Origin: a virus
Taxonomy: Duplodnaviria > Caudoviricetes
IMG/VR virus record: IMGVR_UViG_3300009661_000074
Location: 1 to 54,318 of that record
DNA: 54,318 nt
Reading direction: 5' to 3' (one strand)
Numbering within the stretch: position 1 is the stretch's first letter; every line of letters begins with the position of its first letter. The translations under genes were made by a program, and so were the position numbers. The notes below the pieces were generated by a model. That model was not told the origin of the DNA. It saw nothing but the letters and a program-made list of their open reading frames with translations, and did not search any database. This document shows, in pieces, positions 13,190 to 32,076 of this stretch.

Positions 13190-13271
13190 TTTAGAAAAAA
13201 TATGGTGGTCGCAAGAGAGGACAGTTGAGCTACCTCCCTCACAAAATCACGTTCGCGTCATTTGACTTGGC

Positions 13272-14208: not shown

Positions 14209-14227
14209 TATATGACCCGGAGGCCCT

Positions 14228-14467: not shown

Positions 14468-14497
14468 CCCATTCATCAGCCACAAGGAGCATCACCC

Positions 14498-14692: not shown

Positions 14693-14721
14693 AGGCCCTC
14701 TTGAGTCCCTCCGGAGGGCCT

Positions 14722-14916: not shown

Positions 14917-14946
14917 GTCGTAACCCAATCGTTACAGGAGATAGAA

Positions 14947-15730: not shown

Positions 15731-15867
15731 GTCCGGCCCCCAAGGCCTTCGTTTGTGGAAATTCGAAACTACCACGGATGCGCCGGACGCCCATAACGCC
15801 TGAATCGCAGGCATAAAAAAACCGGGATTGCGGCCCGGCTTCTTCAACAACACTTGTGAGGTCGATT

Positions 15868-16623: not shown

Positions 16624-16624
16624 C

Positions 16625-17602
16625 ATGCAATTCACCGTCACTATTAATCAGGCGAAGGCGTTGGAGTGGGGCTTGAACTCACAACAAGCGTTGCTGTTCG
16701 CCTTCGTTTACGAATGCCCAAGTTGGGCCAATCCGATAAAGACGGAAACGGGTATCTACTTCGCGCTGAGCAAGGCCAAGATCGTTGAAGAAGTGCCCTT
16801 GCTCACCGACAAACCAGACACCGCCTACCGCCTTTTGAAAGCTCTCAGCGATGCCGGCCTTATTGAGCTTTCCAGTACCTCGAGCATCACTCTGGTCCGT
16901 CTCACCGAGAAGGCTAAAGAGTGGAATCGCAAGCTGGATGGGTCGGAAAAATATCCGACCTCAGATACGGGTAGTGGTCGGAAAAAAATCCGATCTACCT
17001 CGGAAAAATCTCCGAGCAAGGTCGGAAAAAAATCCGATTCAGGGTCGGAAAAATCTCCGACAAATCAGGGTACCAATAATCAGGGTACCAATCAGGTAAC
17101 CAGTAATCAGGGTTTGCAGGACGGCGCGGACGAGCCGCCCCAGCCTGGAGGATTGGTGTTGGTTGTGGATCGCGCTGAGGCACCACGGGTTGAGATTCCT
17201 GCGGATATGCCAGGCCCCAAGGACCAGACCTGCAAAACTTTCAAGGTCTGGGCGAACTACGCAATGGCGTACCGCAAGTTCTACAAAACCTGGCCGGTAT
17301 GGAACGCCAAGGTCGGCGGCCAATTGGGCCAGCTTGTTGATCGCCTCGGCGCCGACGTCGCCCACCATGTGGCCGCCCACTACCTGAAAAACAGCGATGC
17401 AGGCGTTGTGCGCAAGTGCCACAGCATCAACGAGTTGCTGGCCAACGCCGAGAGCTACCACACCCAGTGGGCTACCAACCGCCAGATGAACGGCGCCACT
17501 GCTCGCCAGATGGAGAATACCCAGGCCAACGCCAACACCGCGGAAGCGGCCAAGGCGATGGTTCTTGAGGAGGGGCGGCAGAATGCTTTCCTCCGCCGAT
17601 AA
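16625..17602 (+). CDS. Phage replication initiation protein (O-like)
   Basis: MQFTVTINQAKALEWGLN N-terminal wHTH-type region; internal iterons. Confidence 0.85.
   Translation: MQFTVTINQAKALEWGLNSQQALLFAFVYECPSWANPIKTETGIYFALSKAKIVEEVPLLTDKPDTAYRLLKALSDAGLIELSSTSSITLVRLTEKAKEWNRKLDGSEKYPTSDTGSGRKKIRSTSEKSPSKVGKKSDSGSEKSPTNQGTNNQGTNQVTSNQGLQDGADEPPQPGGLVLVVDRAEAPRVEIPADMPGPKDQTCKTFKVWANYAMAYRKFYKTWPVWNAKVGGQLGQLVDRLGADVAHHVAAHYLKNSDAGVVRKCHSINELLANAESYHTQWATNRQMNGATARQMENTQANANTAEAAKAMVLEEGRQNAFLRR
16943..17113. repeat. Replication origin: five 16-bp iterons plus AATCAGG repeats
   Basis: TCGGAAAAAWMTCCGA at 16943, 16978, 17000, 17022, 17045, then four AATCAGG-containing repeats. Confidence 0.85.
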
Positions 17603-18362
17603 GCTCGACCTGATCGATGCTCTGTGCGTCACCGCCGAGGCGATGGGCACCACGCTCACACCGAACGCTGCCAAGACCATGGCCGACGACCTGGAACTGT
17701 TCAGTGTCAGCGATCTGGTCATCGCGCTGCAGTCCTGCCGCCGCGAACTGACGGGTCGCCTGACGCTGGCCGCAATCCTGCAGCGCGCGCAAGCCGCTGA
17801 TGGTCGTCCGGGCAAGGATGAGGCGTGGGCTATCGCTTTAACCTCAAGCGATGAATCAGACACCGTTGTGATGACCGATGAGATTCAGGTTGCTCTTGGC
17901 GCCGCGCGTCCGGTGTTGAACCTTGGCGACAAGGTTGGGGCCCGCATGGCCTTCATCGGCGCCTATGAGCGGCTTATCCAAGCAGCTCGTAACGAAGCTA
18001 TTCCGGTCAACTGGCATGTCTCTATCGGATTCGATGCCGGTCGCCGCATCGAGGCAATCAATGCGGCTGTGCAGATGAAGCGGATCCCTCAGGAGCGCGG
18101 GAAGTTATATCTGACTGATCTGAACATTGTTCCTGTCACCCAGGACGGCTTGGCAATTGCCGGACTTCTCAGCGGCAAGGCAGCCATGCCATCACCAGAC
18201 GTCCGTGAAAAGCTCAAGACGATCAGCGACAGCCTGAAGGTCAAGGCTCGTCAAAAAGAAGCCGTGCGTGCGCACCAATCCCGGCAGGTTCGAAAAGACT
18301 TGAACGACCGTATTAATCGCCAGCTCGAACTGGCCGCTGCCGCGCAGAAGAGGGCTTCTTGA
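17583..18362 (+). CDS. Replication protein at the P position (helicase-loader-like)
   Basis: Overlaps the end of the O-like gene; DGRPGKDEAW..GARMAF motifs. Confidence 0.65.
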   Translation: MLSSADKLDLIDALCVTAEAMGTTLTPNAAKTMADDLELFSVSDLVIALQSCRRELTGRLTLAAILQRAQAADGRPGKDEAWAIALTSSDESDTVVMTDEIQVALGAARPVLNLGDKVGARMAFIGAYERLIQAARNEAIPVNWHVSIGFDAGRRIEAINAAVQMKRIPQERGKLYLTDLNIVPVTQDGLAIAGLLSGKAAMPSPDVREKLKTISDSLKVKARQKEAVRAHQSRQVRKDLNDRINRQLELAAAAQKRAS

Positions 18363-18880
18363 TGGCTATTACCGAATCTCGCCTGCAACAGCTATTGGCT
18401 GGACAGTCATCAATTGCCCGAAAGGTATTCGTGCATGTGCCCATTCAAGAATGCTGGAGCGCTCACGATGTCCACGGAGCTGCCTTGGCTGCCAATGCCA
18501 CCACCGTGTCAGCGCACGCGATCCGCCGAGCGCTTTGCGAGCTGAAGGATGCCGGGATCATCCGTGAGCCGATAGGCGGGAAGTTCCAGCGCGATGCAAT
18601 CACCATAAAACTAAAGAGCCAGCAGCCCATGACGAAAGCAGTCACCGAAACAGTTGTCTCGATCAAGAAGCTGGAGGTCCAGGCGCTGGACGCACTGGCA
18701 GGGCTTTCTGCCGAAGTTATCGACTTGTCCAACGAAGTGGCTTCGCGGCTGAAAGCGCTTGCCTGTCGCATTGAGGAGGTTGCGCTCGGCGTTGAGGCTG
18801 AGCGTGAGGGTAATGCCCAGGCTTCAGCCAAATTGAAGCAGCTGCAAAGCCTGCTCAAGGATATCGGAGGTGCCGCGTAA
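18362..18880 (+). CDS. Hypothetical protein (wHTH-like N-terminus, coiled-coil C-terminus)
   Basis: Translationally coupled to the preceding gene. Confidence 0.7.
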   Translation: MAITESRLQQLLAGQSSIARKVFVHVPIQECWSAHDVHGAALAANATTVSAHAIRRALCELKDAGIIREPIGGKFQRDAITIKLKSQQPMTKAVTETVVSIKKLEVQALDALAGLSAEVIDLSNEVASRLKALACRIEEVALGVEAEREGNAQASAKLKQLQSLLKDIGGAA

Positions 18881-19092
18881 TGTTTGTGCCACATGACTCG
18901 ATGCTGCTCTGTCCCCAGTTGAGCGATTACCGGTTTGCGGTGTACTCCCGAGGACATCTGATGGACCTGACAACGACGCCGCAACAGCCGGTGGCGCTCT
19001 TTAGCAACGAGCGAATTGCCTGCTCCTACGGCGCACGTATGTGGCCAACCACGTTCACCGTCGTTGACCTGGGCGAGGTCCGCCACGCATGA
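18880..19092 (+). CDS. Hypothetical protein
   Basis: TAATG coupling; GGAGG RBS. Confidence 0.6.
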   Translation: MFVPHDSMLLCPQLSDYRFAVYSRGHLMDLTTTPQQPVALFSNERIACSYGARMWPTTFTVVDLGEVRHA

Positions 19093-19535
19093 CCAGTAAA
19101 CTATCCCGGGTATTGGTTGGTAACCGCGCAGCTCGCCCCAAGCCCTCCCGTGCCAAGCCGGTGGACCGTGAAGGCCTGGAGCAGGCTGCACTGATCAGCG
19201 AAATAGCATTCCGTTACCCGGTCGCTGCCAAATTGCTTTACCACGTCCCGAACGGCGGAAAGCGGCATGTGGTAGTCGCCAAGAAGCTCAAGGCTCAGGG
19301 CGTAAAGGCGGGCGTGCCTGATCTGGTGTTGCCTATGGCCAGGGGTGGGCATTTCGGGCTGTACATCGAATTCAAGGCCAAGCCGCCATTCGACGCCGAT
19401 GTGTCGGCCAGCCAGCACGCCTACATGCACCTTCTGATTGAGCAGGGCTATCTCGCCACCGTTTGCCGTGGATCCTTCGACGCTATGGAGGCGCTGCGGG
19501 CATACCTGCGACTGCCCCAGACGGTGGCCGCGTGA
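19089..19535 (+). CDS. VRR-NUC domain nuclease
   Basis: HVPNGG, GVKAGVPDL, IEFK, Q motif of the PD-(D/E)xK fold. Confidence 0.88.
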   Translation: MTSKLSRVLVGNRAARPKPSRAKPVDREGLEQAALISEIAFRYPVAAKLLYHVPNGGKRHVVVAKKLKAQGVKAGVPDLVLPMARGGHFGLYIEFKAKPPFDADVSASQHAYMHLLIEQGYLATVCRGSFDAMEALRAYLRLPQTVAA

Positions 19536-20824
19536 GTAAGACTCGAGCGGTAAAGTTCACCGATGCCGAGATTCGACGCCAGGCCGCAGATCCTGCCGTG
19601 CATGACCTGCGCGACCCTCGCCACCCTGGCCTGTATCTGCGCTTTAGCCAAGCTCGGCCTCGCGGGTCGTGGTATCTGGTGAAGGGCAAGGCCTGGACCC
19701 AGATCGCGCGGTTTCCCGAGTTGGGTGCGTCTACCGTGTTGGCGGAACTGCCTGCCCTGCGTCAGCGCCTATTGCGTGACCCCAGCGCAATCGTCGCTCT
19801 GGGCGGCCTGGCCACGGTAGGTCAATTGTTGGACTGGTATGGCGACCGTATGGCGCGTGATCGGTCTCTGTCTGCCAAGCGCAAGAGCGGTGCAAAGTCG
19901 GCCATCGCCTGTCACCTCAAGCCACGGCTGGCCGAGCTGCCAATCCGTGACGTTTCGGCGCCGGAACTGGACAAGCTGCTGATGTGGCCAGCCCAGGAGA
20001 TTTTGTCGCTGTCCTACGTGCGGCAGTTGTTCGGCCTGTTGGTCGTCGCGTTCCGCCAGGCTCACAAGCTGGGGCTTATCGACGGCAACCCTATGGCAGG
20101 GTTGAAATTCGTGGACTTCACGAAAGCCAAAATCATGCCCAAGGCAGCCCGGCTTCGCGGTGTGCACCTGGTCAATCTTGTGCCCATGCTGGCCGGGCTG
20201 TTCGAAACCGCGCCGGCTGAAGCCATGTTGGCCCTGATGATGCTGTGTCACGGCACCCGGGTGGGGGAGACCCGCCTATCCCGGTGGCCGGACATTACCT
20301 TGGCAGATGCTGAGTGGTTCATCCCTGCCGAGAACACCAAGACCCGGACCGAACACCGCCTGCCATTGACTGCCCAGGTGCAGGCCCTGCTGCGCCGGTA
20401 CCGAGCCATTCAGGTTGCCCAGGGTTATGAGGGCACCTACCTGTTCCCGTCACGCCGGGGACGGGCATTGACCGAGGGTCAGGCTAGTGCCGTGTTTACG
20501 CGGATGGGGAAGGGGGAATGGACCAGCCACGACCTGCGCAAAGTCGCCCGTACCGCTTGGACTGACCTGGGCATCGATGGGCACATCGGCGAGATGCTGC
20601 TGAACCATTCGCTGGGCAAGATCGCATCGACGTACATCAATACCCAGGCTCGGGCACAGCGCCTGATCGCCTTAGAAAAGTGGCATCACCTGTTAGATGC
20701 GCGTGGCTTTAAGAAGATTCACAACCTGACAGACGCCCAATACGAAGAATCGGATAAACCAGCGCAGCCCGCTAAAGACGTGGCCTGCGAGGTAATTTCT
20801 AACATTGTTAATGGCGAGGTTTAA
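19532..20824 (+). CDS. Second tyrosine recombinase (nin-region)
   Basis: HGTRVGE, NTKT, HDLRK, LLNH, TY catalytic set; GTGA overlap with VRR-NUC. Confidence 0.88.
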   Translation: MSKTRAVKFTDAEIRRQAADPAVHDLRDPRHPGLYLRFSQARPRGSWYLVKGKAWTQIARFPELGASTVLAELPALRQRLLRDPSAIVALGGLATVGQLLDWYGDRMARDRSLSAKRKSGAKSAIACHLKPRLAELPIRDVSAPELDKLLMWPAQEILSLSYVRQLFGLLVVAFRQAHKLGLIDGNPMAGLKFVDFTKAKIMPKAARLRGVHLVNLVPMLAGLFETAPAEAMLALMMLCHGTRVGETRLSRWPDITLADAEWFIPAENTKTRTEHRLPLTAQVQALLRRYRAIQVAQGYEGTYLFPSRRGRALTEGQASAVFTRMGKGEWTSHDLRKVARTAWTDLGIDGHIGEMLLNHSLGKIASTYINTQARAQRLIALEKWHHLLDARGFKKIHNLTDAQYEESDKPAQPAKDVACEVISNIVNGEV

Positions 20825-20828
20825 AAAC

Positions 20829-21143
20829 GTGAAAAAGAGCCACGGACCCGCCTTCAGGAAGCAACTGATCGAGCTGTCCGCCTGCCCAACCTGCCGGGGC
20901 AGCGGTTTCACGAAGGGGCTTTTTCATCAGCTGGAGTGCAGCCACTGCCATGCATCCGGCTGGGTAGCCGCCGAGTCAGGTGAGCCGCTTTCGCTGCCTG
21001 ACCTGGTGCTGCAACTCGGGCTCAGATTGAAAGCAGCAGACCAGATGATTGCGTCTCTCCGGCGCCCAGCGGGTGGTGCGGACCAGCAATACATGCAGAA
21101 CAACCGTCGCGGTGCCGGCGGATCGAACCACACCGGCGATTGA
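20829..21143 (+). CDS. Zinc-finger protein (CxxCxGxG-type)
   Basis: CPTCRGSG..CSHCHASG; likely GTG start at 20829. Confidence 0.7.
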   Translation: MKKSHGPAFRKQLIELSACPTCRGSGFTKGLFHQLECSHCHASGWVAAESGEPLSLPDLVLQLGLRLKAADQMIASLRRPAGGADQQYMQNNRRGAGGSNHTGD

Positions 21144-21176
21144 CCGGTAAGAAATCTTGATCGGGGAGAGCAGCAC

Positions 21177-21863
21177 ATGAAGTTGATAGGGGCTCGTCAG
21201 GCCTGGACCGACTCGCAGCATGAGTCAGGAACCTCAATCTCGGCTGTAGCCATTGAGACCGCGAAAAACGGCATTAAAAAAAGCAAAACCCGAATCCAAA
21301 AGCGCGATGCCTTTTTCCCAGCCATGGGTACCGAAGAAAATGAGAGGGAAGGTCGCTTTCCAGTTTTGGGTCAACGCATCAGCATCAGCGAGACTCGCCA
21401 GAGTGCCGCCGGGCGATCCACTGACCGTGCTGCGCATCTGGCGATGATGGGAAAGTTTCAGCGTGCGATCGCCACGCTACCTTTCCAGGTTCAGCAGTTC
21501 GGGCACTTCATGTACTCACCCATCCCGAACATGCGCTACGTGCTGAATGCTGTGCTGCTGATATTCACCAAGGCCGAACTGTCTGAGCTGACACCACTGA
21601 AGCGTGCGCGGGCCTTTTACCTGGTGACTGCCGCTTTGCAATCCTTCAAAGCCGAGGTCACTGGTGCTTGTGAATGGGGGCCGGCGCGGGTCGCGGCGGA
21701 GGTCGAAGAGTTTTATGGGGTGGTGATCGACGTCAACAACTGGAATAGGGATTGGCGTACCACCTGGAATTTGCTGAAAGCCACCATTAAGGAAGTCGAT
21801 ATCGATGCGCAATCACCACTTTGGCAGGTGATTCACTCGGAAAAATCGGAAGGGGCAGCATAA
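21177..21863 (+). CDS. Putative late antiterminator (Q-like)
   Basis: Last early gene, directly before a sigma70 promoter, terminator and holin; function inferred from position. Confidence 0.6.
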   Translation: MKLIGARQAWTDSQHESGTSISAVAIETAKNGIKKSKTRIQKRDAFFPAMGTEENEREGRFPVLGQRISISETRQSAAGRSTDRAAHLAMMGKFQRAIATLPFQVQQFGHFMYSPIPNMRYVLNAVLLIFTKAELSELTPLKRARAFYLVTAALQSFKAEVTGACEWGPARVAAEVEEFYGVVIDVNNWNRDWRTTWNLLKATIKEVDIDAQSPLWQVIHSEKSEGAA

Positions 21864-21867
21864 AATC

Positions 21868-21896
21868 TTGCATTGAATGGAAAACCACGTTACATT
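21868..21896 (+). promoter_or_regulatory. Late promoter, pR'-like
   Basis: TTGCAT-17 nt-TACATT. Confidence 0.7.
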
Positions 21897-21935
21897 TTCC
21901 ATAGTGCACAAGTTACAACCGATGCACACAAGCAT

Positions 21936-21967
21936 TTAAACCCGGCCAGCGCGCCGGGTTTTTTATT
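21936..21967 (+). terminator. tR'-like terminator
   Basis: AAACCCGGC..GCCGGGTTTTTT. Confidence 0.8.
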
Positions 21968-22014
21968 CTCGGCAGTCATGGCACAGTCATCCTAATTTCA
22001 AGGGAGTGATGTGT

Positions 22015-22386
22015 ATGGAAATGTGGGAGCTGGCTAAGCGAATTCTGGCTTCGGCCAACGAGGGGCAATCGTTTACTCCATCCCTTGCGGGATCTGCATA
22101 CCGCAGAGTGCTCGAAAGTTCTGGACAGACAGACCTTCCGCCATTGGAAGACTTTCATAACTGGGCGGAGACGCTGGCAGCACAAATGCAGTTCGTTGGT
22201 CTGCTTGAGAAAGCTTCAACGCCAATTCGTGGCAGTAGAATCCTAGGAGTTGTTCGTAGAACCGAGTTCGGTGATGAGCTTTACGATGCTCTGCAAGGTC
22301 AAAACGTGGTCTTACTCTTCCAGTCAATGCAGGCGACGATTGATGCTGGAGAAATACGTAGAATTTTGCATCAGCTAGAAGCTTGA
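22015..22386 (+). CDS. Hypothetical moron protein (possible wHTH)
   Basis: AGGGAG RBS; lies between two near-identical terminators. Confidence 0.65.
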   Translation: MEMWELAKRILASANEGQSFTPSLAGSAYRRVLESSGQTDLPPLEDFHNWAETLAAQMQFVGLLEKASTPIRGSRILGVVRRTEFGDELYDALQGQNVVLLFQSMQATIDAGEIRRILHQLEA

Positions 22387-22399
22387 GTTCTCGTACTTG

Positions 22400-22430
22400 T
22401 TAAACCCGGCCTGGCGCCGGGTTTTTTATT
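22400..22430 (+). terminator. Terminator, near copy of 21936-21967
   Basis: TTAAACCCGGCC..CGCCGGGTTTTTTATT. Confidence 0.8.
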
Positions 22431-22654
22431 GCCCAAATGCAGGTAATCGCGCAGGCAGCTGCGCTAAGTCGGTAGTGGCATCGCCTATATCCCGTGCGGA
22501 CCCTGGGCGTTTACGCGATGAGAAGGCGGGGTACGTGACCCAGCGAGCCGCCTCACCAGAGCTGGATATTTGCACCAGCCACCTGCGCCCATTCCAAGGC
22601 TCGCCACATCGGCGGGCCTTTTTCATTTCTGCTCCCTGAGAGGGAGGACTTTGG

Positions 22655-22978
22655 ATGCCGCACATGCCTGAAAAAGATCCGTCCTTTTGGGCATTTGTCC
22701 TGAGTGCTCTCCGGGATAACGGCCTGGCCATGGCACTGACTGTGGCGTTGACCTGGCTGCGCATTCAGTACGATGGCAAGAGGCCCAGCCCGATCCGCCA
22801 GCTCATCGAAGCAGCACTTGGCGCGTTGATCGTCATGGTTGTCGGACTGACCGTCAAAGAGCTTGGGCTCAGCATCGGCTGGTCGTTCTTCGCATCAGGT
22901 TTCATCGGCGTCCTGGGCGTGGATTACGCCCGCCAATTTGGTCAGCGCTGGGCCGAGCGCAAGGCAGATTCCCTATGA
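22655..22978 (+). CDS. Holin, lambda S family
   Basis: MPEKDP..W N-terminus, three hydrophobic segments, GFIGVLGVD. Confidence 0.88.
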   Translation: MPHMPEKDPSFWAFVLSALRDNGLAMALTVALTWLRIQYDGKRPSPIRQLIEAALGALIVMVVGLTVKELGLSIGWSFFASGFIGVLGVDYARQFGQRWAERKADSL

Positions 22979-23190
22979 AGTTGATCGACGACGTGGGTCA
23001 GTGCCACCGACTCTGGTCTGTTCGCCTGGCACTGGCCGGCGCGGTATTGAACGCCGGTGCAATCGGTTGGACGGTGTTCCAAGGCGCCGTGAATCCGATG
23101 CTGTACGCCTCGATCAATATGGCGTTGGGCATTGGTGTAGCCGTCGTTCGCGTTCTGTCGCAAACCCCGCCCGATGGTGGACCGCAATGA
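22975..23190 (+). CDS. Small two-TM membrane protein (holin/antiholin-like)
   Basis: WSVRLA..RVLSQ; ATGA-coupled to the holin. Confidence 0.65.
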   Translation: MKLIDDVGQCHRLWSVRLALAGAVLNAGAIGWTVFQGAVNPMLYASINMALGIGVAVVRVLSQTPPDGGPQ

Positions 23191-23528
23191 ATCTCCTGAA
23201 AACATTCCTCGCATGGATTGCGAACACCTTCACCCGCACTCCTATAGAGGAAACGAAAATGCCTGATGACCTGATTCAGTCCGGTGTTGTAGCCGATACC
23301 GCCCTGATTGCTGCCGACGTGCCAGCAATTCCTGCGGCCCCGATCCTGCCAACCCCTGCTGCCGCCGATACTCCAGCTGTGGCCGCAGCTCCGGCTGTTG
23401 TTGCAACGCCTGCTGCAGCCGTTGCGCCGGTTAACACCGACATCTTGAAAGCTCTGCTCCTGACGTTGGGTCATGACATTGAAGCCGAATGGGACCACTT
23501 GGTTGCTCTCGCCAAGAAAACCCTATGA
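23187..23528 (+). CDS. Ala/Pro-rich hypothetical protein (alternative start 23259)
   Basis: ATGA coupling; second RBS before MPDD. Confidence 0.6.
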   Translation: MNLLKTFLAWIANTFTRTPIEETKMPDDLIQSGVVADTALIAADVPAIPAAPILPTPAAADTPAVAAAPAVVATPAAAVAPVNTDILKALLLTLGHDIEAEWDHLVALAKKTL

Positions 23529-23542
23529 AGGAGGCTCATGAT

Positions 23543-23770
23543 ATGGCCAAGACCGAAACAGCAGCCCCAACCGACAGCTCATCTTGCGGGCTGATTGCTG
23601 GCTCATCCATAGCGGGGCCGGACGTGGTCGAATCTACCCTGTCCGAAGTACTGGTTTCGCGTTTGGCCTCGTGTTCAGTCGCGCACTTGCAGTCTGAGGC
23701 AACAGCCTGCGCCGAGGCAGTCAAGGCAGCTTTTGAAACGCTGCGCGCAAAGCCTGCAGAAGCGGAGTAA
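23543..23770 (+). CDS. Hypothetical protein
   Basis: AAGGAGG RBS; start could be 23525. Confidence 0.55.
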   Translation: MAKTETAAPTDSSSCGLIAGSSIAGPDVVESTLSEVLVSRLASCSVAHLQSEATACAEAVKAAFETLRAKPAEAE

Positions 23771-23773
23771 CAA

Positions 23774-24439
23774 ATGGCGAGCCCAATCGATCTTTCAGTG
23801 CGTTCCAACGTCAAAGAGTTGTCCAAGAAGTTATCCGCTCTGGCTTACAAACAGATTGGGTTCGCCACGGCTCAGGCTTTGACGGCCATCGCCAAACAGG
23901 TGCAGGCCGATGAAACCCGCAACATCGCTCACACGTTCAAGAAGCCTAAACCGTTCACTCAGAATTCAGTGGGTGTAAGGGGCGCTCGCAAAGACAACCT
24001 GGTAGCGACGGTGTTTGTTCGTCCGATCGCTGCCAAATACCTCGCGCCTTATGAAGACGGCGGTGTGCATTTCCTGTCTGGTCGTGCGCTGTTGAACCCC
24101 AAGAACCTGAAACTGAATGCTTACGGGCAGTTGCCTCGTGGTGTGCTGGCTCGACTCAAAGCGCGCAAAGACATTTTCATTGGGCCGGTGAAAACCAAAG
24201 CCGGCTCAGTCAATGGCGTTTGGCAGCGCATACCGCCAAAGGATGGCAAGGCTGCAAGAAGAGGGCGTGCAGCAGTCGCGGCACAGCCTGGGCACCTGAA
24301 GTTGTTGATTCGTTTCGGTGATGCGATCCAGGTGAACAAGCGGCTCAACTACCGCAGTCGGGCGATGGCGGTGGTTGAGCGTGGGTTCGCAGCCGCGTTC
24401 CGTGAGTCGTTAGGCAGGGCGCTGGAAACTGCCAAATAG
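23774..24439 (+). CDS. Basic phage late protein, gpZ/tail-completion-like
   Basis: KQIGFATAQALTAIA..FKKPKPFT; very basic; family assignment tentative. Confidence 0.6.
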   Translation: MASPIDLSVRSNVKELSKKLSALAYKQIGFATAQALTAIAKQVQADETRNIAHTFKKPKPFTQNSVGVRGARKDNLVATVFVRPIAAKYLAPYEDGGVHFLSGRALLNPKNLKLNAYGQLPRGVLARLKARKDIFIGPVKTKAGSVNGVWQRIPPKDGKAARRGRAAVAAQPGHLKLLIRFGDAIQVNKRLNYRSRAMAVVERGFAAAFRESLGRALETAK

Positions 24440-24649
24440 AACGGATGAATTCCACTATTTGCCAATGATCGGTCTGTACTGTCCGACCCAAAGCGGTCTT
24501 TAGAATACATCTGACTTCTAAACGGGGTCTGCGTTTTTACATGGTCTGGGCCTATTGCTGCCGGCCGCAAACTGACTTGGGCGACCCTAAACAGGACTAT
24601 AGGGAGAGGCTGAAAAAACCCATTTTTTCACCAGAATTGCGTACAGAAC

Positions 24650-25651
24650 CTAAAGATTAAAAAATTGGTTTCTGCCCCGTTTTTTTGCTATGTAGAGAGC
24701 TTTATCGGCTCGGGCTAGTAGTACGTTATACGGGTGCAGTGGACCAAATGTATGTACTGAAAAACCAACGCTTATAGTTAAGTATCCCGTGCTGGAAGCT
24801 GCGTGCGGTATTCTCAAGTTACGTACTAGTTGGCATAAGTTTTCGACGTGCCGAGCTGATTGGTCTTTCGTCATGCCGCTGGAAAGAATTACAAACTCTT
24901 CACCCCCATACCTGGCTGCAAAATCAGAGCCTCGCTGGAAAGACTTATTCAAACTATCAGCAACACGTATTAATGCTTCGTCGCCAGCTTGATGTCCATA
25001 AATATCATTGAATGACTTGAAGTTATCAACATCAATCATGGCAAGAGTCAATGAGTCGCTGTTGCGGCATGCAATTTTACATTGAATTTCGAACTGTGTA
25101 TCAAAAAAGCGACGATTGTAAATTCTTGTCAGTCCATCTTTTATGGATAGTTGTTCGAAGTGTACTTTCATTTCCTCTAGGGATTGATGCTCATCGCGAA
25201 GTTGCTGTTGTATTAGCATGCGAGATGTTACATCTTTTTGTATGCCTAAAAAATTGGTTACAGCTCCATTTTCATCATGAATTGGAGATATGCTTAGCTC
25301 ATTCCAAAACATCGTTCCATCCTTGCGATAGTTTCGCAAGGTTACGAGGCAATACTCACCTTTTTTTATGGCGTTGTGAACAATTTCAAGTTCAGGCTGT
25401 TCTTGATCGTTTTTTTGTAGGTATCGACAATTAATGTTAGTGCTTTCTTCAAACGAGTAACCGGTCATGCGCTCAAAAGCAGGATTTACAAATATCAGCG
25501 GATTGTCGTCAATACAATTATCGGAGATGGTGATGCCATCTCGCGAATCCATAACTGCCTGTTTGAGAATTTCAATCTTCATACAAATTCCGTTAGTAGG
25601 ATTGAATTGAGGAGCGCTGCTTTGAAACGGTATGATCTCTAGGTAGTGCAT
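24650..25651 (-). CDS. LOV-type PAS + GGDEF diguanylate cyclase (moron; alternative start 25582)
   Basis: NPLIFVNPAF..TGY..NCRYLQ..NYRKDG..FWN..GIQKDVT; DGLT..NRR, IDVDNFK..ND..GH..GD, RGSD I-site, RYGGEEF, ADKALY. Confidence 0.93.
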   Translation of the reverse strand: MHYLEIIPFQSSAPQFNPTNGICMKIEILKQAVMDSRDGITISDNCIDDNPLIFVNPAFERMTGYSFEESTNINCRYLQKNDQEQPELEIVHNAIKKGEYCLVTLRNYRKDGTMFWNELSISPIHDENGAVTNFLGIQKDVTSRMLIQQQLRDEHQSLEEMKVHFEQLSIKDGLTRIYNRRFFDTQFEIQCKIACRNSDSLTLAMIDVDNFKSFNDIYGHQAGDEALIRVADSLNKSFQRGSDFAARYGGEEFVILSSGMTKDQSARHVENLCQLVRNLRIPHAASSTGYLTISVGFSVHTFGPLHPYNVLLARADKALYIAKKRGRNQFFNL

Positions 25652-26082
25652 TTAATTAATTTGCTTAATGTATAAGTGTAGTCGTTGAGAGAATAAAATG
25701 TTTTTTTATGCTTTCGATAGCCGTTGCGATTAATTCCAGTCAAAAGCTCCGCAGAAATAGCCTTGGCTGCCTGATTGCGTCAGAAATCACCGGCATTAGG
25801 GCACAAGTATTAAAGGCTTAACTGGCCACTTTTTTTTCGCGCGACCGCTTGGTGACCGGCAGCTTTTGGCCGATTTCTGTCAGTCGTGTCTAGCGTGCTT
25901 ATTGAATCAAATGTAAAGGCTGGTCTCAGCCTATCCGCCAGGTGACCTTCTTGGGGGCAACCGTGCAGCCTCGCTACCAGAAGGCCATGGGTCCCTCCGC
26001 GCCCTTCTGGCACCGAGGGCATTGCGCGCCGTGCTGCTTCACTAGCTAAAAAAAATTGAAATTTGGGTAACGGGGGTAACGA

Positions 26083-26622
26083 ATGACGATCGTCTCCCAA
26101 GCCGAATACGCTCGCCTGCGCGGCGTCAGCAAAAAGACCGTGACCCAATGGAAACGGGATGGAAAGCTGGTTTTGGGTGATGGCGGCGTCGATGTCGAGG
26201 CGTCCGATGCGTACCTGAAAAAGTACCGCGCAGCCGGTTTAAAAGGTAACGATCAGGGTAACGGGGGTAACGCGTTACCTGCAGCGCTCGAATTGGAAAC
26301 GCTCGAGCAAACGGCGTTCCGAATCCTTGCGACCCAGGGCGCTGATATGTCGCTCGAGGAAGCGAAGCGCGTAAAAGAAAACTACCTGGCCCTGCTTAAC
26401 CAGCTTGAGTACGACCAAAAATCAGGGGCTGTTGTGCTGGTCGCCGACGTTGCTGCTGCCGTGGGGCTTGAGTATTCAAAGGTACGCACGCGGCTTCTCG
26501 CCATACCTGCCGAGCAGGCGCCGCGTATCCATCGCCTGAAAACTGTGACCGAGGTCCAAGACGTCCTTCAGGAACTAATCACCGAGGCCCTTGAGGAAAT
26601 GATCAGCGATGGAGGCGACTAG
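26083..26622 (+). CDS. terS: Terminase small subunit (Nu1-like)
   Basis: N-terminal HTH SQAEYARLRGVSKKTV; overlaps terL start. Confidence 0.82.
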   Translation: MTIVSQAEYARLRGVSKKTVTQWKRDGKLVLGDGGVDVEASDAYLKKYRAAGLKGNDQGNGGNALPAALELETLEQTAFRILATQGADMSLEEAKRVKENYLALLNQLEYDQKSGAVVLVADVAAAVGLEYSKVRTRLLAIPAEQAPRIHRLKTVTEVQDVLQELITEALEEMISDGGD

Positions 26623-28579
26623 CAGATATGCCAGCGGCCTGGAATCGCTTGCCCTCCAACTACGTCTTGCCCGACTGAAAAACCTGCAGCCTCCACCCAA
26701 ACTGACCTTGAGTCAGTGGGCTGAGCGCTACGCTGTGCTGTCGAAAGAAACGAGCGCCCAGACGGGTCGCTTCCGTGCTTTCGCGTACCAGAACGGCATG
26801 ATGGATGCCATTTCTGACCCGGCTGTGCACACCGTCACGGTGAAAAAGTCGGCCCGGGTGGGTTACACCAAAATCCTCGATCACGTGGTCGGCTATTACA
26901 TTCACCAGGACCCGTCTCCAATCCTGATGGTGCAGCCTCGGGTCGAGGACGCCGAGGACTACAGCAAGACCGAAATCGCTCCTATGCTGCGCGATACGCG
27001 AGTGCTGAGAGAACTGACCGGCGACAGCAAGGCCAAGGATAGTAATCAGACGATCCTGAAAAAGACCTTTCTCAACGGGGCGAGCCTGTCTCTGGTGGGC
27101 GCGAACTCGCCTGGTGGCTTTCGTCGGATCACGTCGCGAATCATCCTGTTCGATGAAGTGAACGGTTATCCCGTTGGCGGTGCGGGCTCCGAAGGCGATC
27201 AGATAGCCCTTGGCAAGAAACGTGGCGAAACGTTCTGGAACCGCAAAGTCGTTCTGGGCAGTACCCCGACAGTTAAGGGTGCAAGCCGTATTGACCGCAG
27301 CTGGGAGGAGAGCGATCAACGCCGGTATCACGTGCCATGCCCTCACTGTGGTGAAAAGCAGGTACTTGAATGGGGCGGCCCAGATACTCCCTACGGTTTT
27401 AAGTGGGACACCGACGAGGCCGGTGTAGGCCTTCCCGAAACCGTCTTCTATGTGTGCAGGGCAAACGGCTGCGTTATTCACGATATCGACAAGCCCGACA
27501 TGGTGGCTGCGGGCGAGTGGATCGCTGGCAAGCCATTCGCAGGGCATGCAGGCTTCCATATTTGGGCAGCCTACAGCCTGTTCCCGAATGCCTCCTGGGT
27601 GAACCTGGTCACCGAATGGCTGCGGGTAAAGGATGACCCGCTTTCGCGGCAAACCTTCATCAACCTGGTGCAGGGCGAGGACTACGAGGACCGTGGCGAG
27701 AATGCTCTTGCTGAGTCTCGATTGGTTGCCCGCTGTGAGGTATGGGGGGCGGAAGTACCGGATGGCGTGGCTGTGATAACCGTTGGCGTCGATACCCAGG
27801 GCGATCGCTTCGAATGTGAAGTGGTTGGTTGGGGCATGAACGAGGAAAGCTGGTCCATTGATTTCGAAATCATTGCAGGCGACATGGAAACTCCTGATAT
27901 CTGGGATCGGCTCGACGCCTATCTGAAACGGATCTGGTACCGGGCTGATGGTCGCGGGTTTGAAGTCATGGCGGTCTGTCATGACTCCGGTGGCCACCAC
28001 TCACAGAAAGTCTATGACTTTGCCAAAGCTCGCATAGGCCGCCGGGTTTGGGCCATCAGGGGCGAGTCAGCGGTAGGCGGCAAGCGCTCACCGGTCTGGC
28101 CGACCAAGATACCCAGCAAGCGCAACAAGTCCTCGTTTCGCCCGGTGATTATCGGCGTCAACGCGGCCAAGGATTCCATTCGGTCGCGGCTACATCTCAC
28201 CCAGTCAGGTCCGGGTTACATGCACTTCCCGACCGATCGCGATATCAACTACTTCGCGCAGATGACGTCGGAGCGTTCTGTACGGAAAACCTCTGGCGGC
28301 CAGCACTATCGGGTGTGGGAGCTGCCGCCAGGTCGTGCCAACGAGGCGCTCGACTGTCGGGTGTATGCCTACGCGGCACTGTGCGGGCTGATGCATATGT
28401 GGCTCAAGTTGAACAAACGCGCTGAAGAGGTCGGTGCTTCGATTGGGCCCGTTCTCTTGCGGGCACCTGTACCCGTTTTGCAAAGCCCCGATGTTGTACC
28501 GGCCACTGTTGAAGTAACGCAGGGCGTGAGCCAGGCCAAACCCATCAAACGTAAGTCAGCCATCGCAAAAATGGCGTAG
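26609..28579 (+). CDS. terL: Terminase large subunit, lambda GpA family
   Basis: KSARVGYT Walker A variant, FDEV Walker B, STPT, CPHC, GVDTQ, NEALDC. Confidence 0.95.
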   Translation: MEATSRYASGLESLALQLRLARLKNLQPPPKLTLSQWAERYAVLSKETSAQTGRFRAFAYQNGMMDAISDPAVHTVTVKKSARVGYTKILDHVVGYYIHQDPSPILMVQPRVEDAEDYSKTEIAPMLRDTRVLRELTGDSKAKDSNQTILKKTFLNGASLSLVGANSPGGFRRITSRIILFDEVNGYPVGGAGSEGDQIALGKKRGETFWNRKVVLGSTPTVKGASRIDRSWEESDQRRYHVPCPHCGEKQVLEWGGPDTPYGFKWDTDEAGVGLPETVFYVCRANGCVIHDIDKPDMVAAGEWIAGKPFAGHAGFHIWAAYSLFPNASWVNLVTEWLRVKDDPLSRQTFINLVQGEDYEDRGENALAESRLVARCEVWGAEVPDGVAVITVGVDTQGDRFECEVVGWGMNEESWSIDFEIIAGDMETPDIWDRLDAYLKRIWYRADGRGFEVMAVCHDSGGHHSQKVYDFAKARIGRRVWAIRGESAVGGKRSPVWPTKIPSKRNKSSFRPVIIGVNAAKDSIRSRLHLTQSGPGYMHFPTDRDINYFAQMTSERSVRKTSGGQHYRVWELPPGRANEALDCRVYAYAALCGLMHMWLKLNKRAEEVGASIGPVLLRAPVPVLQSPDVVPATVEVTQGVSQAKPIKRKSAIAKMA

Positions 28580-28588
28580 GAGAATCCT

Positions 28589-28843
28589 GTGTTTACACCA
28601 CGCCTCAACAACTTCAGCGGCGTGGCCCCGGCCACGTTGCAACAATGGCTGGCTGAATCGCAGCAGGCACTTCATGACCTGAGTACCGGCGCCAAGGGCG
28701 AGTCGTACAGCTACACCCAAGGCGACGGCGCCAAATCGGTGACTTACACCCGTGCTGACATCGGCGCGCTGCAGGCTCACATCAACGCGCTGTTGTATGC
28801 CCTGGGCATGCGTCGGCGCCGTGCTATCCGGCCGGTGTTCTGA
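28589..28843 (+). CDS. gpW-like head-tail joining protein
   Basis: Between terL and portal; LSTG..SVTYTRAD..RRRAI. Confidence 0.8.
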   Translation: MFTPRLNNFSGVAPATLQQWLAESQQALHDLSTGAKGESYSYTQGDGAKSVTYTRADIGALQAHINALLYALGMRRRRAIRPVF

Positions 28844-30501
28844 TGACGACTGAATCCTTGATTGTCGACTCTCGCGGGCGGCCCCTGATGCCCATGCCGC
28901 CGAAGGCCAAAGGCAACGCCACGACGCTCACCGAGGGCATGGCGGGCCAATCGGTTTTCCCCTACGAGGCCTCGAACTGGTCGACGCAGGAAATGGGCAA
29001 CTGGCTGCCGTGGATTCGCTCGCCCGATGCTGAGATCAACCAGTTTCGTGATCGGATGGTGGCGCGTAGCCGCGACCTGGTACGTAACGACGGCTGGGCG
29101 GCGGGTGGTATCACCCGGATCCTCGACAACACCGTGGGCGCTTCACTGCGCTTGTCGGCTAACCCGGATTATCGGGCACTGGCCGCCATGACTGGCAACC
29201 GCAAGTTCGATTCGGTCTGGGCCGAGGAGTATCGCCGGGCCGCCGAAGCACTGTGGCGGGGTTATGCCGACGACATTGGGCGCTACAGCGATGTTTCCCG
29301 GCAATTGACCATTTCCCAGCAACTGCGCCTGGCGCTGCGCCACAAGCTGGTCGATGGCGATTCACTGGTGGTTGCCTACTGGATGCCGGAGCGCGTCGGT
29401 TATGGCCGTGCGACCTACTCGACGGCGTTCATGCTGGTGGACCCCGATAGGCTTTCCAACCCGTACCAGATGGTTGACAGCAAGTACATGCGCGGCGGCG
29501 TTGAGATCGATGATCACGGCGTGCCGGTGGCGTACCACATCCGCAAGGCGCATCAAAACGACTGGTACAACTCCGTGGAAAGCATGGAGTGGGAGCGGGT
29601 AGAGCGCGAGGACGACGACGGCTGGCATCGAGTCATTCACGATTTCGAACGTGACCGTGCCGGGCAGAACCGGGGCGTGGGTGTTTTCACGCCAGTGCTG
29701 GCGCGCTTCAAGATGTTGGCGCGCTACTACGGCGTTGAGCTGCAGGCCGCGACCATTGCTGCGACGTTTGGCACCTATGTCACCAGCCCTTACGACCCGG
29801 CCCAAGTGGCGGAAGCACTGGACGGTGGTGATGAGCTTTCTGCCTATCAGGGCATGCGAGCCGACTGGGCCGATGAGCGTCCGGCAATGTTGTCCGGGGC
29901 GCGGATTCCAACCCTGGCCCCAGGCGAGTCGATCACATCGGTTGGCGCCGCGCATCCACACAATGGCTTTGGCGAGTTCGCGCACGAGATGTTGCGCACC
30001 TTTGCCGCCGCTGCAGGGATTTCGGCTGAGCAGATCACCCAGGATTGGTCGAAAACCAACTACTCCAGCGCCCGGGCAGCCCTGCTAGAAAGCTGGAAGA
30101 CCCTGACCCGGCGCAACACTGAATTCAAAATCGGTACCGCGACCCCGGTGTTCTCCTGCTGGCTGCATGAGGCGATGGACCGTAATGACTTGCCGCTGCC
30201 CAACGGCGCACCTGACTTCATGGAAGCCCGTACAGCGTACTCGCGGTGCGACTGGCTGGGCGTTGCCCGTGGTTGGGTTGACCCTGTGAAAGAGAAGCAG
30301 GGCGCGATTCTGGGCATGGACGGCGGTCTGTCCACGCTTAAGCGCGAGTGCGCCGAGCAGGGCCTCGATTACGAGGAGGTGATTCACCAGCGTGCCGCCG
30401 AGGTGGCCCAGTTCAAAGAGCTGGGCTTGCCACCCCCGGCTTGGTTCGGCGACACCGCCGCCAATGCCTCAACCCCTGAAGAAGAGCCCGAAGCGCAATG
30501 A
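28843..30501 (+). CDS. Portal protein, lambda family
   Basis: RSRDLVRND, QNRGV, NYSSAR, WVDPVKE. Confidence 0.95.
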   Translation: MTTESLIVDSRGRPLMPMPPKAKGNATTLTEGMAGQSVFPYEASNWSTQEMGNWLPWIRSPDAEINQFRDRMVARSRDLVRNDGWAAGGITRILDNTVGASLRLSANPDYRALAAMTGNRKFDSVWAEEYRRAAEALWRGYADDIGRYSDVSRQLTISQQLRLALRHKLVDGDSLVVAYWMPERVGYGRATYSTAFMLVDPDRLSNPYQMVDSKYMRGGVEIDDHGVPVAYHIRKAHQNDWYNSVESMEWERVEREDDDGWHRVIHDFERDRAGQNRGVGVFTPVLARFKMLARYYGVELQAATIAATFGTYVTSPYDPAQVAEALDGGDELSAYQGMRADWADERPAMLSGARIPTLAPGESITSVGAAHPHNGFGEFAHEMLRTFAAAAGISAEQITQDWSKTNYSSARAALLESWKTLTRRNTEFKIGTATPVFSCWLHEAMDRNDLPLPNGAPDFMEARTAYSRCDWLGVARGWVDPVKEKQGAILGMDGGLSTLKRECAEQGLDYEEVIHQRAAEVAQFKELGLPPPAWFGDTAANASTPEEEPEAQ

Positions 30502-31361
30502 CCAATTATCCGCATCTGGCGCAGAAACTGTTCAACGTGCCGCTGGCGATCACCCCGCAAAAAGCTGAGATCGTCATGGCCGCCCTGGCTGACCGGTTCG
30601 GCCTGGCGCGGCTGTTTCATGCCGACGGCAAGGTGGTCGCGCTGGACAACTGGGATGGCGATATCGGCGAGCCTGCCGAGGCCAGAGCCTATGAGGTGGT
30701 CGCCGGTATTGCCGTCATCCCGGTGACCGGCACCCTTGTACAGAAACTGGGCACTCTGCGGCCTTACAGCGGGATGACAGGTTACGACGGGCTGCGCGCC
30801 TGTTTGAGCATGGCCCTGGCCGATGATGACGTTCGTGGCATCGCGCTCGATATCGACAGCCCGGGTGGAGAAGTGGCGGGGTGCTTCGACCTGGCCGACG
30901 ACATCTACCGCGCTCGCGGGAGCAAACCGATCTGGGCCATCCTCACCGAATCGGCTTACTCGGCGGCGTATGCTTTGGCCAGCGCCTGTGACCGCATCGT
31001 GGTCCCGCGTACGGGCGGTACCGGCAGTGTGGGCGTGATCTGCATGCACGTAGACATGTCCAAGGCGCTGGGCGCGGCCGGGGTCAATGTCACGCTGATC
31101 CACTATGGCGATCGCAAGGCCGATGGAGCTGACTCGAAGCCACTGTCGGACGAGGCGTTGTCACGATATCAGTCTGACGTCGACGCCATGGGCGAGCTGT
31201 TCGTAAAGACTGTTTCGCGTAATCGCAGCCTTTCTGTAAAGACCGTGCGTGCCACCCAGGCCACCACTTTTCTGGGCGCCGCTGGCGTCGAGATTGGCTT
31301 TGCCGATGCCGTCATGGCGCCGGACGAAGCGTTCCGTTCCCTGCTCGCCGAGCTGGGTTGA
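30498..31361 (+). CDS. S49 family head maturation protease
   Basis: DIDSPGG, AYSAAYALAS, GSVGV. Confidence 0.92.
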   Translation: MTNYPHLAQKLFNVPLAITPQKAEIVMAALADRFGLARLFHADGKVVALDNWDGDIGEPAEARAYEVVAGIAVIPVTGTLVQKLGTLRPYSGMTGYDGLRACLSMALADDDVRGIALDIDSPGGEVAGCFDLADDIYRARGSKPIWAILTESAYSAAYALASACDRIVVPRTGGTGSVGVICMHVDMSKALGAAGVNVTLIHYGDRKADGADSKPLSDEALSRYQSDVDAMGELFVKTVSRNRSLSVKTVRATQATTFLGAAGVEIGFADAVMAPDEAFRSLLAELG

Positions 31362-31392
31362 AGTTTCAACTCCCTTAAAAACCGAGGTTCAC

Positions 31393-32076
31393 ATGTCCAA
31401 GCTTTCCCGCGTGGCGAGCGCGCTTTCGTTCGCCCATTTGGCCGGTATCGGATCGATGCGCGGCAAGAATGCACGCGCTGATGACGATGACGACGAGCGC
31501 AAAGATGCTCGAGCAGATGACGATGAGCCGGACGACGGCAACGAGCAGGATCGCGATAACGGCGACAGCAAGAAATCGCGCAAGGCCAAAAAGGCCAAGG
31601 CCGGTGAAGACGCTGACGATGATGACGACGAACCTGCTGCAAAAGGTCGCGCTGCCGACGGCGATGATGACGACGACGATGAAGGTGATGGCAAGTCGTC
31701 TCGCCGCGCCAAGGGTAAGTCGGCATCCGATGACGATGATGCGGACGCCGAAGACGACGATGACGAAGATGAAATGCACGGCAAGAGCGCTGCCGCCAAC
31801 GCCCGTCGCCGTGAGCGTGCGCGCTGCGCTGCCATCTTCGGTTCCCGCTATGCCGCGCGTAACCCGGTGCTGGCAGCCAACCTGGCGTTCGGTACCAGCA
31901 TGACCCGTCAGCAGGTTCTGGCCGCCCTGCGTGATGCGCCGGCCGACAGCACTACCAACCGGTCCCGTTCGGCAAAAAATCCTGAACTGGGTTCGGGCGG
32001 TGAACAGTCACCGTCGCGCCAGGCTCACATCGAAGGCCGCTGGGACCGCGCCATGTCCAAGGTTCGCGGTCGCTGA
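31393..32076 (+). CDS. Putative scaffolding protein (Asp-rich, low complexity)
   Basis: GAGG RBS; poly-Asp tracts; ERARCAAI motif; between protease and decoration genes. Confidence 0.65.
   Translation: MSKLSRVASALSFAHLAGIGSMRGKNARADDDDDERKDARADDDEPDDGNEQDRDNGDSKKSRKAKKAKAGEDADDDDDEPAAKGRAADGDDDDDDEGDGKSSRRAKGKSASDDDDADAEDDDDEDEMHGKSAAANARRRERARCAAIFGSRYAARNPVLAANLAFGTSMTRQQVLAALRDAPADSTTNRSRSAKNPELGSGGEQSPSRQAHIEGRWDRAMSKVRGR

Follow-up and report, generated by a model that had tools for sequence, protein, structure and literature searches.

A predicted LadC-family LOV-GGDEF diguanylate cyclase in a soil prophage and the small module that probably carried it there

A stretch of viral DNA of 54,318 nucleotides (IMG/VR record IMGVR_UViG_3300009661_000074, Caudoviricetes), analysed here at its full length and called the window, carries just ahead of its terminase genes an antisense gene whose predicted product joins a LOV sensor to a GGDEF domain. 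A first-pass annotation, made from the letters alone, had read it as a prophage moron encoding a LOV-GGDEF diguanylate cyclase. This core reading stood: the product matches the LadC family, whose members are diguanylate cyclases activated through a LOV domain; the window represents a complete provirus; and the equivalent slot holds no such gene in any of three related prophages. Our analysis further outlined a low-GC module of ~1.3 kb that comprises the gene and recurs at unrelated chromosomal sites. Overall, we consider it likely that the locus is explained by a LadC-type enzyme encoded on a portable module in the moron slot of a complete prophage. The enzyme belongs to an already known, well-characterised family; its phage context is what is unusual and new.

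The predicted enzyme and its family

The translation contains every motif quoted in the first-pass annotation, namely NCRYLQ, NYRKDGTMFWN, GIQKDVT, IDVDNFK and an RGSD separated by five residues from GGEEF. A Pfam search of the 333-amino-acid (aa) frame assigned residues 171-329 to GGDEF (2.3e-44) and residues 38-142 to PAS_9 (4.3e-21), with overlapping PAS models in the sensor, among them PAS_3 (2.5e-11); no EAL domain was detected, as had been claimed, and no HD-GYP domain either. In NCBIfam the LOV part matched YtvA_fam (5.7e-41) and the GGDEF part TIGR00254 (1.8e-46). When compared with known LOV-GGDEF proteins, a check that had been proposed at the outset, the product matched PDB 8c05_A (MsLadC) with an E value of 2.5e-93, in an ungapped alignment of query residues 24-329 (333-aa frame) with chain residues 9-314. 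Further solved structures matched by the protein were the Pseudomonas short LOV proteins, YtvA, phototropin and aureochrome (E 1e-38 to 1e-21), together with the catalytically active GGDEF domains of WspR and PleD.

The LadC family was defined in the paper that describes PDB 8C05, the MsLadC of a Methylotenera sp. (Sci Adv 2023, PMC10396304). As far as the accessible portions of that paper tell, the four members studied bound flavin, formed the cysteinyl adduct, were homodimeric and were activated by blue light; the long-linker LadCs, with linkers of 35 aa, make up the switch-like subfamily, and two of them, MsLadC and SfLadC (from Serratia fonticola AU-AP2C), showed >10,000-fold light activation and product inhibition through RxxD, SfLadC having a slow photocycle along with its very high light activation. 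Four of the five LadC membership motifs were found in the prophage protein: FxxxT(G/E)Y as FERMTGY, with invariant F, T and Y columns; N(Y/F)xxx(G/D)xx(F/L)xN as NYRKDGTMFWN; and, in the GGDEF domain, DxLT as DGLT and GG(D/E)EF as GGEEF. Judged on 13 aligned sequences, ranging from 94% down to 51% identity, residues C52, N84, N94 and Q115 (310-aa numbering) and the GGEEF motif were invariant. The linker is of the long, 35-aa type, being ungapped with respect to MsLadC and forming a single helix (residues 119-147) in the model.

Congruently with the sequence matches, the best Foldseek match of an AlphaFold2 model of the protein was 8c05, entitled 'LOV-activated diguanylate cyclase, dark-state structure' (E 2.0e-31, 49% identity). 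The root-mean-square deviation was 22.9 Å, a high value because the model is elongated and the crystal is in a bent dark state. The model had a mean predicted local distance difference test score of 82.2, falling to 52-64 in the first 60 residues because its alignment held just 13 sequences. A total of 529 proteins matched the product at E<=1e-40, including a Serratia fonticola protein that is 86% identical over 100% of its length and has the same sensor motifs (NINCRYLQ). By its sequence and modelled fold, the predicted protein is thus a LOV-activated diguanylate cyclase of the LadC family, within the long-linker subfamily, and by analogy with the characterised members its function is very probably that of a blue-light-activated cyclic di-GMP (c-di-GMP) synthase of the LadC type.

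The open reading frame (ORF) listed by the program spans 24650..25651 on the minus strand (333 aa, ATG start). All 120 relatives among the matches listed are ~310 aa long (310-312 aa), homologues begin at the equivalent of MKIEILKQ, and six aligned upstream regions show one-base gaps ahead of the second ATG and a CGGA conserved 7 nt before it. From the length of the relatives, the single-base gaps and the conserved CGGA, the true start is most likely ATG 25582 (M24 of the 333-aa frame), with a predicted product of 310 aa. The first-pass annotation had described an AT-rich gene, antisense and just before the terminase genes; the ORF, a dip in GC content and the annotation of the neighbours all agree with it. 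GC content is 0.38-0.44 over 24600-25800 and 0.55-0.60 on either side, and the gene itself has 40.5% GC (37% at third codon positions, GC3) compared with 58% (GC3 66.5%) for the large terminase gene and 57% for the window, which is the composition unlike the phage that is looked for in a moron. In all nine comparisons of the prophage copy with nine other copies, the ratio of nonsynonymous to synonymous substitution rates (dN/dS) was 0.044-0.159, so purifying selection acts on the prophage copy as it does on the others. An Rfam search of 24300-26200 at E<=1 gave no match.

The prophage slot and the module within it

The window is a provirus record with a completeness of 100. An integrase gene occupies its left end (1-1197, minus strand). 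Other genes encode a CI-like repressor that contains an S24 peptidase domain, a Q-like protein and a holin, and a structural and lysis set made up of small and large terminase subunits (TerS and TerL), portal, head protease, major head protein, tail sheath, tape measure, baseplate proteins and an endolysin. Judging by this gene content, it is a complete temperate phage with a contractile tail (myovirus-type).

Three related prophages, ~71-72% identical to the window in the terminase region and TerL, were available for comparison. One (G012) stood alone among 34 genomes of its genus in having matches above about 40 nt in length; another (G286) came from a family sample of 401 genomes, and together with G496 represents two of 401 in a second genus. 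The genus sample of G286 and G496 also has chromosomal copies of the gene, which makes a Pseudomonas-type host likely, not proven. In concordance with the moron reading, for which a survey of this slot had been suggested, the LOV-GGDEF gene was absent in all three prophages and the phrog_1924 and terminase genes were adjacent. The slot measures 55 bp between homology blocks in G286, and in G496 the distance from the phrog_1924 stop to resumed homology is 88 bp, within a 188-bp intergenic gap. The third prophage has 516 bp of other DNA there (L112 8380-8895) with small ORFs of 82 aa (minus) and 92 aa (plus), so the slot takes different cargo in different phages. By these sequence comparisons the slot is variable and the segment 24440-25988 is extra in the window, which is the classical picture of a moron.

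One contig of a DNA run from a soil metagenome (X1), which may be the source sample, covers 17427-26031 and so takes in both module ends (24549 and 25872) as well as the extra segment from edge to edge (24440 and 25988); since it is a single contig, the module lies physically within phage DNA. At the break of this contig, 26002-26036, we observed a 35-nt piece with ~3x the depth of its neighbours, and at 24270 it is joined by another contig whose left part differs. Prophage variants with other slot contents may coexist in this sample.

Outside the window, we found 11 copies of the gene in 9 of the 401 genomes, which belong to one genus of the Pseudomonadaceae, with 80-94% protein identity. Named relatives occur in several Pseudomonas species, Serratia fonticola and Caballeronia sordidicola, and a 70% relative in the metagenome-assembled genome of an uncultured gammaproteobacterium. 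Pairwise comparison of the 20 kb around ten chromosomal copies (45 pairs) showed that only one pair is syntenic; the other 44 have only 0.9-1.5 kb around the gene in common, one of these with 113 bp more elsewhere. None of the ten loci has phage genes resembling those of the window, and the tblastx matches of two of them to scattered window positions were disregarded as short chance groupings. At one locus the neighbours are an ATP-binding cassette transporter, a LysE exporter and a two-component system.

Homology to the window extends past the ORF in six of these ten copies (L110 and L124-L128), and its limits recur. The limit downstream of the gene is 24549 in three copies and 24616-24625 in the other three, and the limit upstream is 25869-25879 in five and 25781 in one (24549-25872 and 24549-25869 in L124 and L125, 24616-25873 in L127, 24625-25873 in L128 and 24625-25879 in L110). 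The four most distant copies have the ORF alone in common. At both limits lie the arms of an imperfect inverted pair, I2, which read in gene sense GGCC-AAAA-GCTGCCGG... and ...CCGGCAGC-AATA-GGCC. Six of the 11 copies have the upstream arm, which lies at -289 to -309 relative to the ATG, and six have the downstream one. Inverted pairs of this quality are frequent by chance, with 33 in the region, and the case for terminal repeats lies in the coincidence of I2 with both homology end points and in its being kept across copies. A degenerate pattern of the arms, GGCCNNNNGCTGCCGGYC, occurred at only ~1.5x the control in four genomes and is therefore too weak for genome-wide counts of arms.

The module has no transposase gene inside it and none was identified for it, and no direct repeat flanks it except a shared GGCC, a target duplication not being evident. 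A search with the flanks of one copy, which matched 97 of the 401 genomes, returned no clean empty chromosomal site. We also considered an integron cassette, whose attC core sites (GTTRRRY) were not seen by inspection at boundaries that read GGCC-wwww-GCnGnC (an integron integrase was not searched for), and a Xer/dif-type module, whose dif sites are unlike the GnCnGC-wwww-GGCC arms; the end sequences support neither.

Directly outside the downstream arm lies the only match of the motif TTTTTACATGGTCTGGGCC in the 54-kb window, preceded by a hairpin. In chromosomes this motif is mostly paired 148 bp apart and marks the ends of a ~167-bp palindromic element, similar to a miniature inverted-repeat transposable element (MITE), with GGCC at both ends. 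Its counts against the control were 33 to 0 in G591, 12 to 1 in G459, 7-8 to 1 in G653 and G647, and 2 to 2 in G362. A second element, of 186 bp, adjoins a module copy in G459 (L124 9273-9458); it has GGCC at both ends, and its terminal inverted repeats of 23 nt are 96% alike. Pieces of ~200 bp and 82-96% identity occur in many of the genomes (97 of 401) matching a 6.2-kb query, a tally that includes one genome marked unpublished. The repeat elements and the module are all flanked by halves of the palindrome GnCnGC-wwww-GGCC-wwww-GCnGnC. Elsewhere in G591, ~167-bp palindromic repeats stand every 2.1-2.2 kb in one region (L137, G591:C69:44000-52000) and less regularly in another (L136, G591:C19:57000-76999). 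Between repeats in this genome lie single accessory genes, which encode a MatE exporter, a dCache-HAMP-GGDEF protein, hydrolases, a major facilitator superfamily transporter, a PAAR protein and an IS5-like transposase, and the two runs resemble an array of single-gene units.

From these observations we conclude that sites of this kind delimit a small module in which the gene travels, and that fragments of neighbouring repeats came into the prophage with it. The gene is neither of phage origin nor phage-specific, and probably this module brought it into the variable slot of the complete prophage. Movement could occur by transposition in trans, by site-specific recombination at the palindrome or by recombination between dispersed repeats. 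The features of the locus are collected in Table 1.

Table 1. Predicted features of the LOV-GGDEF locus and its borders, in window coordinates (strand left empty where none applies)
Feature	Position	Strand	Basis
LadC-type LOV-GGDEF coding sequence, 310 aa (start ATG 25582, stop 24650-24652)	24650..25582	-	Relatives of 310-312 aa; ungapped 8c05 alignment
In-frame 23-codon upstream extension of the mechanical ORF, probably untranslated leader	25583..25651	-	One-base gaps between copies; CGGA
LOV (PAS_9) sensor core; adduct Cys codon TGT 25427-25429 in NCRYLQ	25226..25540	-	Pfam PAS_9, YtvA_fam, solved LOV proteins
Helical coiled-coil linker, long-linker LadC type	25142..25225	-	No gap against MsLadC; one helix in model
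GGDEF catalytic domain; DGLT wide turn; RGSD I-site 24923-24934; GGEEF 24893-24907	24665..25141	-	Pfam GGDEF, TIGR00254, invariant columns
Portable module: gene, ~290 bp upstream and ~100 bp downstream	24549..25872		82-90% DNA identity with chromosomal copies
Upstream terminal arm, in gene sense GGCC AAAA GCTGCCGGTC...	25849..25872		Inverted pair I2
Downstream terminal arm, 23 nt, inverted counterpart of the upstream arm (complementarity 74%)	24549..24571		Pair I2; ...GCAGCAATnGGCC end in 6 copies
MITE-like repeat-end fragment (hairpin and TTTTTACATGGTCTGGGCC) abutting the module	24513..24552	+	Sole copy of the motif in the prophage; aligns with 167-bp doublets
Extra segment missing from the same slot of related prophages	24440..25988		Comparison with G286, G012 and G496
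Conserved phage gene phrog_1924, annotated 'minor tail protein', left slot border	23774..24439	+	8.5e-49; same position in G286, G012 and G496
Small terminase subunit, right slot border	26083..26622	+	phrog_57, 3.5e-32
Large terminase subunit	26609..28579	+	phrog_15, 4.4e-253

Within the repeat fragment that came with the module, 24513-24538 (+) forms a terminator-like hairpin with a T-run between the phrog_1924 gene and the terminase genes, in a scan whose count was no higher than in shuffles; if this hairpin were active, late transcripts would reach the terminase genes only by antitermination. Elsewhere in the prophage there is a second tyrosine-recombinase gene just upstream of the Q-like gene (19463-20824, +; phrog_1 4.7e-43, Pfam Phage_integrase 9.7e-19). 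Other accessory genes encode a 689-aa protein with a C5 cytosine methylase domain (2473-4542, -), a phosphoadenosine phosphosulfate reductase-like protein (5263-5766, -), a DUF5677 protein (6264-6983, +) and a Dam-type N6-adenine methylase (50728-51498, +).

Phage survey, expression and competing readings

Among 50,697 phage records, no full-length match exceeded 27% identity: 146 records match, all below 60%, and 2 of them cover >=80% of the query. A megablast search of window positions 21000-29000 against the same records gave no match. The LOV part alone matches five phage records, four short unannotated 'Listeria phage' contigs (40% identity) and one faecal contig. GGDEF relatives are frequent in IMG/VR, in 146 of 192 candidate stretches and in 13 of 23 in another set. 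The LOV signature was found in none of 93 IMG/VR loci kept, using the window as positive control and a few peptide patterns that divergent cases can escape. Some GGDEF relatives at IMG/VR loci L139-L218 have PAS-like N-terminal parts, at 34-36% identity, and may belong either to phages or to flanking host DNA.

Our literature search turned up no report of a phage-borne LOV protein, its sole match on a phage-encoded photoreceptor or LOV protein concerning phage-assisted evolution, and among the works listed on prophage diguanylate cyclase morons none is about such a gene according to titles and the opening lines of abstracts. In the portions of the LadC literature at hand, including PMC10396304, the terms 'phage' and 'physiolog' occur 0 times and the cellular role is passed over. 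If our reading is true, the gene would be the first natural photoreceptor in a phage genome, as far as the collections searched show. LadC enzymes are studied as near-binary optogenetic switches, and one borne by a prophage would be a simple natural experiment on their cellular role. The reading would also point to an undescribed shuffling of single genes between chromosomes and phages, with similar sites bracketing other accessory genes. The result further shows that signalling genes of this sort move in very small self-contained modules able to enter phage genomes, a route for spreading sensory capabilities.

The stretch was found in soil metagenomes of 2017. Six runs recorded as RNA contain at least part of it, three of them with 0.40-0.73 of the sampled words. 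Three RNA runs and the DNA run X1 were mapped, as assembled contigs, on 12001-32000. Contigs from RNA libraries lie over the gene at 24452-25096 (X8), 25455-25879 (X9), and 24767-24935 and 25067-25303 (X10). The first of these crosses the module end and runs 97 nt into the prophage-side flank; the end of the second, at 25879, is near the other module end and may be a transcript end or an assembly break. As the runs were picked for this stretch, contig depth cannot rank genes, and the low cover over the late genes does not mean that these are silent. The RNA-library contigs give a weak hint that the gene is transcribed. A TTGACT box lies in the conserved 290 bp upstream of the gene; scans for promoters and terminators gave counts no higher than shuffles (4 versus 2.6 and 2 versus 2.3), and no weight is given to their individual sites.

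Several observations speak against parts of the proposed reading. Where LadCs have Gx(N/D)C(R/H)(F/I)L(Q/A), the prophage protein has NINCRYLQ, with Asn for Gly and Tyr for Phe/Ile and with the functional Cys, Arg and Gln kept; the deviation is clade-wide, occurs in the S. fonticola protein too and is invariant from 94% to 51% identity. In the MsLadC inhibitory interface, mapped from the 8c05 alignment, Asp44 is replaced by Ser, and Arg174 is conserved. The 86% identical S. fonticola protein is not confirmed as the accession of the characterised SfLadC. Regarding expression, the RNA contigs come from runs picked for holding the stretch, are open to carry-over of DNA and give no strand, start or level; a second allele at 24944-25040 means that some of the signal may stem from other module copies, and a consensus scan of the minus strand upstream of the gene found no sigma-70-like promoter. 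As the module is present at many chromosomal sites, selection on the phage is not required to explain why a phage has it. Lastly, flavin binding, photocycle, activity, lysogen expression and any phenotype are inferred for this protein.

The ALTERNATIVES for the sensor holds that the PAS domain senses temperature, like TdcA, or redox through its flavin, with light having no physiological role, and we regard it as very unlikely. It draws on the PAS-linker-GGDEF layout shared with TdcA, the additional PAS_3 match, the limited light of a soil habitat and the F-to-Y and G-to-N changes in the LOV signature. TdcA of P. aeruginosa, as described in the available parts of its paper (Nat Commun 2021, PMC8012707), gave no flavin spectrum, has a PAS_3 'thermoPAS' domain and is carried on a Tn7-like transposon. 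In the prophage protein, on the contrary, the adduct Cys and the flavin-contact Asn, Asn and Gln are kept, the best matches are all LOV photoreceptors, solved LOV proteins among them, and S. fonticola, the species of the 86% identical protein, is also that of SfLadC, which photocycles and is activated by light according to the portions of PMC10396304 cited above. Given the full set of LOV residues, a thermosensor or a purely redox role is unlikely, and the TdcA-like function offered as an alternative in the first-pass annotation was not upheld. The same LOV-GGDEF protein might have been a c-di-GMP or GTP receptor in place of a cyclase. Degenerate GGDEF domains are common, but here GGEEF, the DxLT wide turn, the metal- and GTP-binding Asp/Asn columns and RxxD are intact and invariant in the alignment and dN/dS is low, and we judge this reading extremely improbable. 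Hardly more credible is an artefact, in which the gene belongs to host DNA misjoined to a phage or what looks like a prophage is a defective remnant: the sequence comes from a metagenome and the X1 contig breaks at 26002-26036, near the right edge of the insertion, but that contig crosses both junctions and the next one overlaps it at 26007, six other DNA runs (three of them flagged as possible sources) hold 0.74-0.99 of the words of a 1.9-kb stretch with both junctions, and phage genes stand on both flanks in a complete gene set.

The rival reading that deserves most weight is that of a neutral hitch-hiker, a functional enzyme whose module landed in a permissive intergenic site without advantage to the phage. 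Since the ~1.3-kb module also occupies unrelated places in the chromosomes of related bacteria, the phage may carry it only incidentally. It occurs at 10 other loci in 9 of the 401 genomes, with unrelated flanks in 44 of the 45 pairs, and in one of four related prophages, the window included; no other LOV-GGDEF was seen among the 93 IMG/VR loci or the 50,697 phage records, and the flanking MITE-like fragments arrived with it. Set against this are the many GGDEF genes in predicted viral contigs (146/192), which suggest that c-di-GMP cargo may be selected, the intact gene under purifying selection and the RNA-library contigs over it. We hold neutral carriage to be a real possibility, if somewhat doubtful. 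Returning to the LadC enzyme on its portable module, the fullest version of this reading is only tentative: a temperate phage of soil Pseudomonas with a working blue-light c-di-GMP switch, in which lysogeny would place motility, biofilm formation and the exposure of flagellar or pilus receptors under the control of light. The switch would have arrived on a module that lacks a transposase and has half of a 24-nt palindrome at each end.

Proposed mechanism and comparison with known systems

By analogy with MsLadC and SfLadC, the protein would be a homodimeric diguanylate cyclase that binds flavin mononucleotide and is activated by blue light. In the dark, the GGDEF domains would be held against the LOV core and inactive. 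Blue light would form the Cys-flavin adduct at Cys52 (310-aa numbering), upon which the inhibitory interface would be released and the linker would become a continuous coiled coil; the paired GGDEF domains could then convert GTP to c-di-GMP, with product feedback through the RGSD I-site. The gene would have come as cargo of the low-GC module, with its own upstream region, short inverted arms and an origin outside phages, and the module would have inserted, with the gene antisense, into the variable slot that separates a conserved late-region gene from the terminase genes in the temperate prophage. Transcribed from its own promoter in the lysogen, the gene would add a light-gated source of c-di-GMP to the host.

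Of the known proteins, MsLadC has the same architecture and length as the prophage protein and the same adduct Cys, DxLT, RxxD, GGEEF and Arg174; about half of the residues differ, with NCRFLQ in MsLadC and NCRYLQ here, and Asp44 in MsLadC and Ser here. The MsLadC gene is chromosomal, the word 'phage' occurring 0 times in the consulted text of PMC10396304, whereas the gene described here lies in a prophage. The species of SfLadC has a protein of the same clade, with NINCRYLQ, that is 86% identical to the prophage protein; its identity to SfLadC is not confirmed. The Pseudomonas short LOV proteins PF5-LOV (7R5N, E 2.6e-38) and PpSB2-LOV (7A6P, E 4.1e-36) have a related LOV core and no effector domain, whereas the prophage protein has a GGDEF output. 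TdcA resembles it in the PAS-linker-GGDEF architecture and in being an accessory gene on a mobile element, and differs in its flavin-free PAS_3 thermoPAS domain in place of the LOV signature, a distinction that follows from the published description of TdcA, as far as it was available, not from an alignment.

At the level of the locus, two kinds of system invite comparison. Phage morons are extra genes between conserved phage genes, for instance in the slot before the terminase. The gene in the window resembles them in its foreign composition, its opposite strand, its place between conserved genes and its absence from related phages, and differs from them in being bounded by inverted arms and in that the same unit is also met in chromosomes. 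Mobile insertion cassettes and pdif modules are gene units without a transposase that are bounded by inverted sites. The module shares with them a single gene between short inverted repeats, the lack of an internal transposase and its occurrence in many contexts, and is set apart from them by arms unlike Xer/dif sites and by the lack of an evident target duplication.

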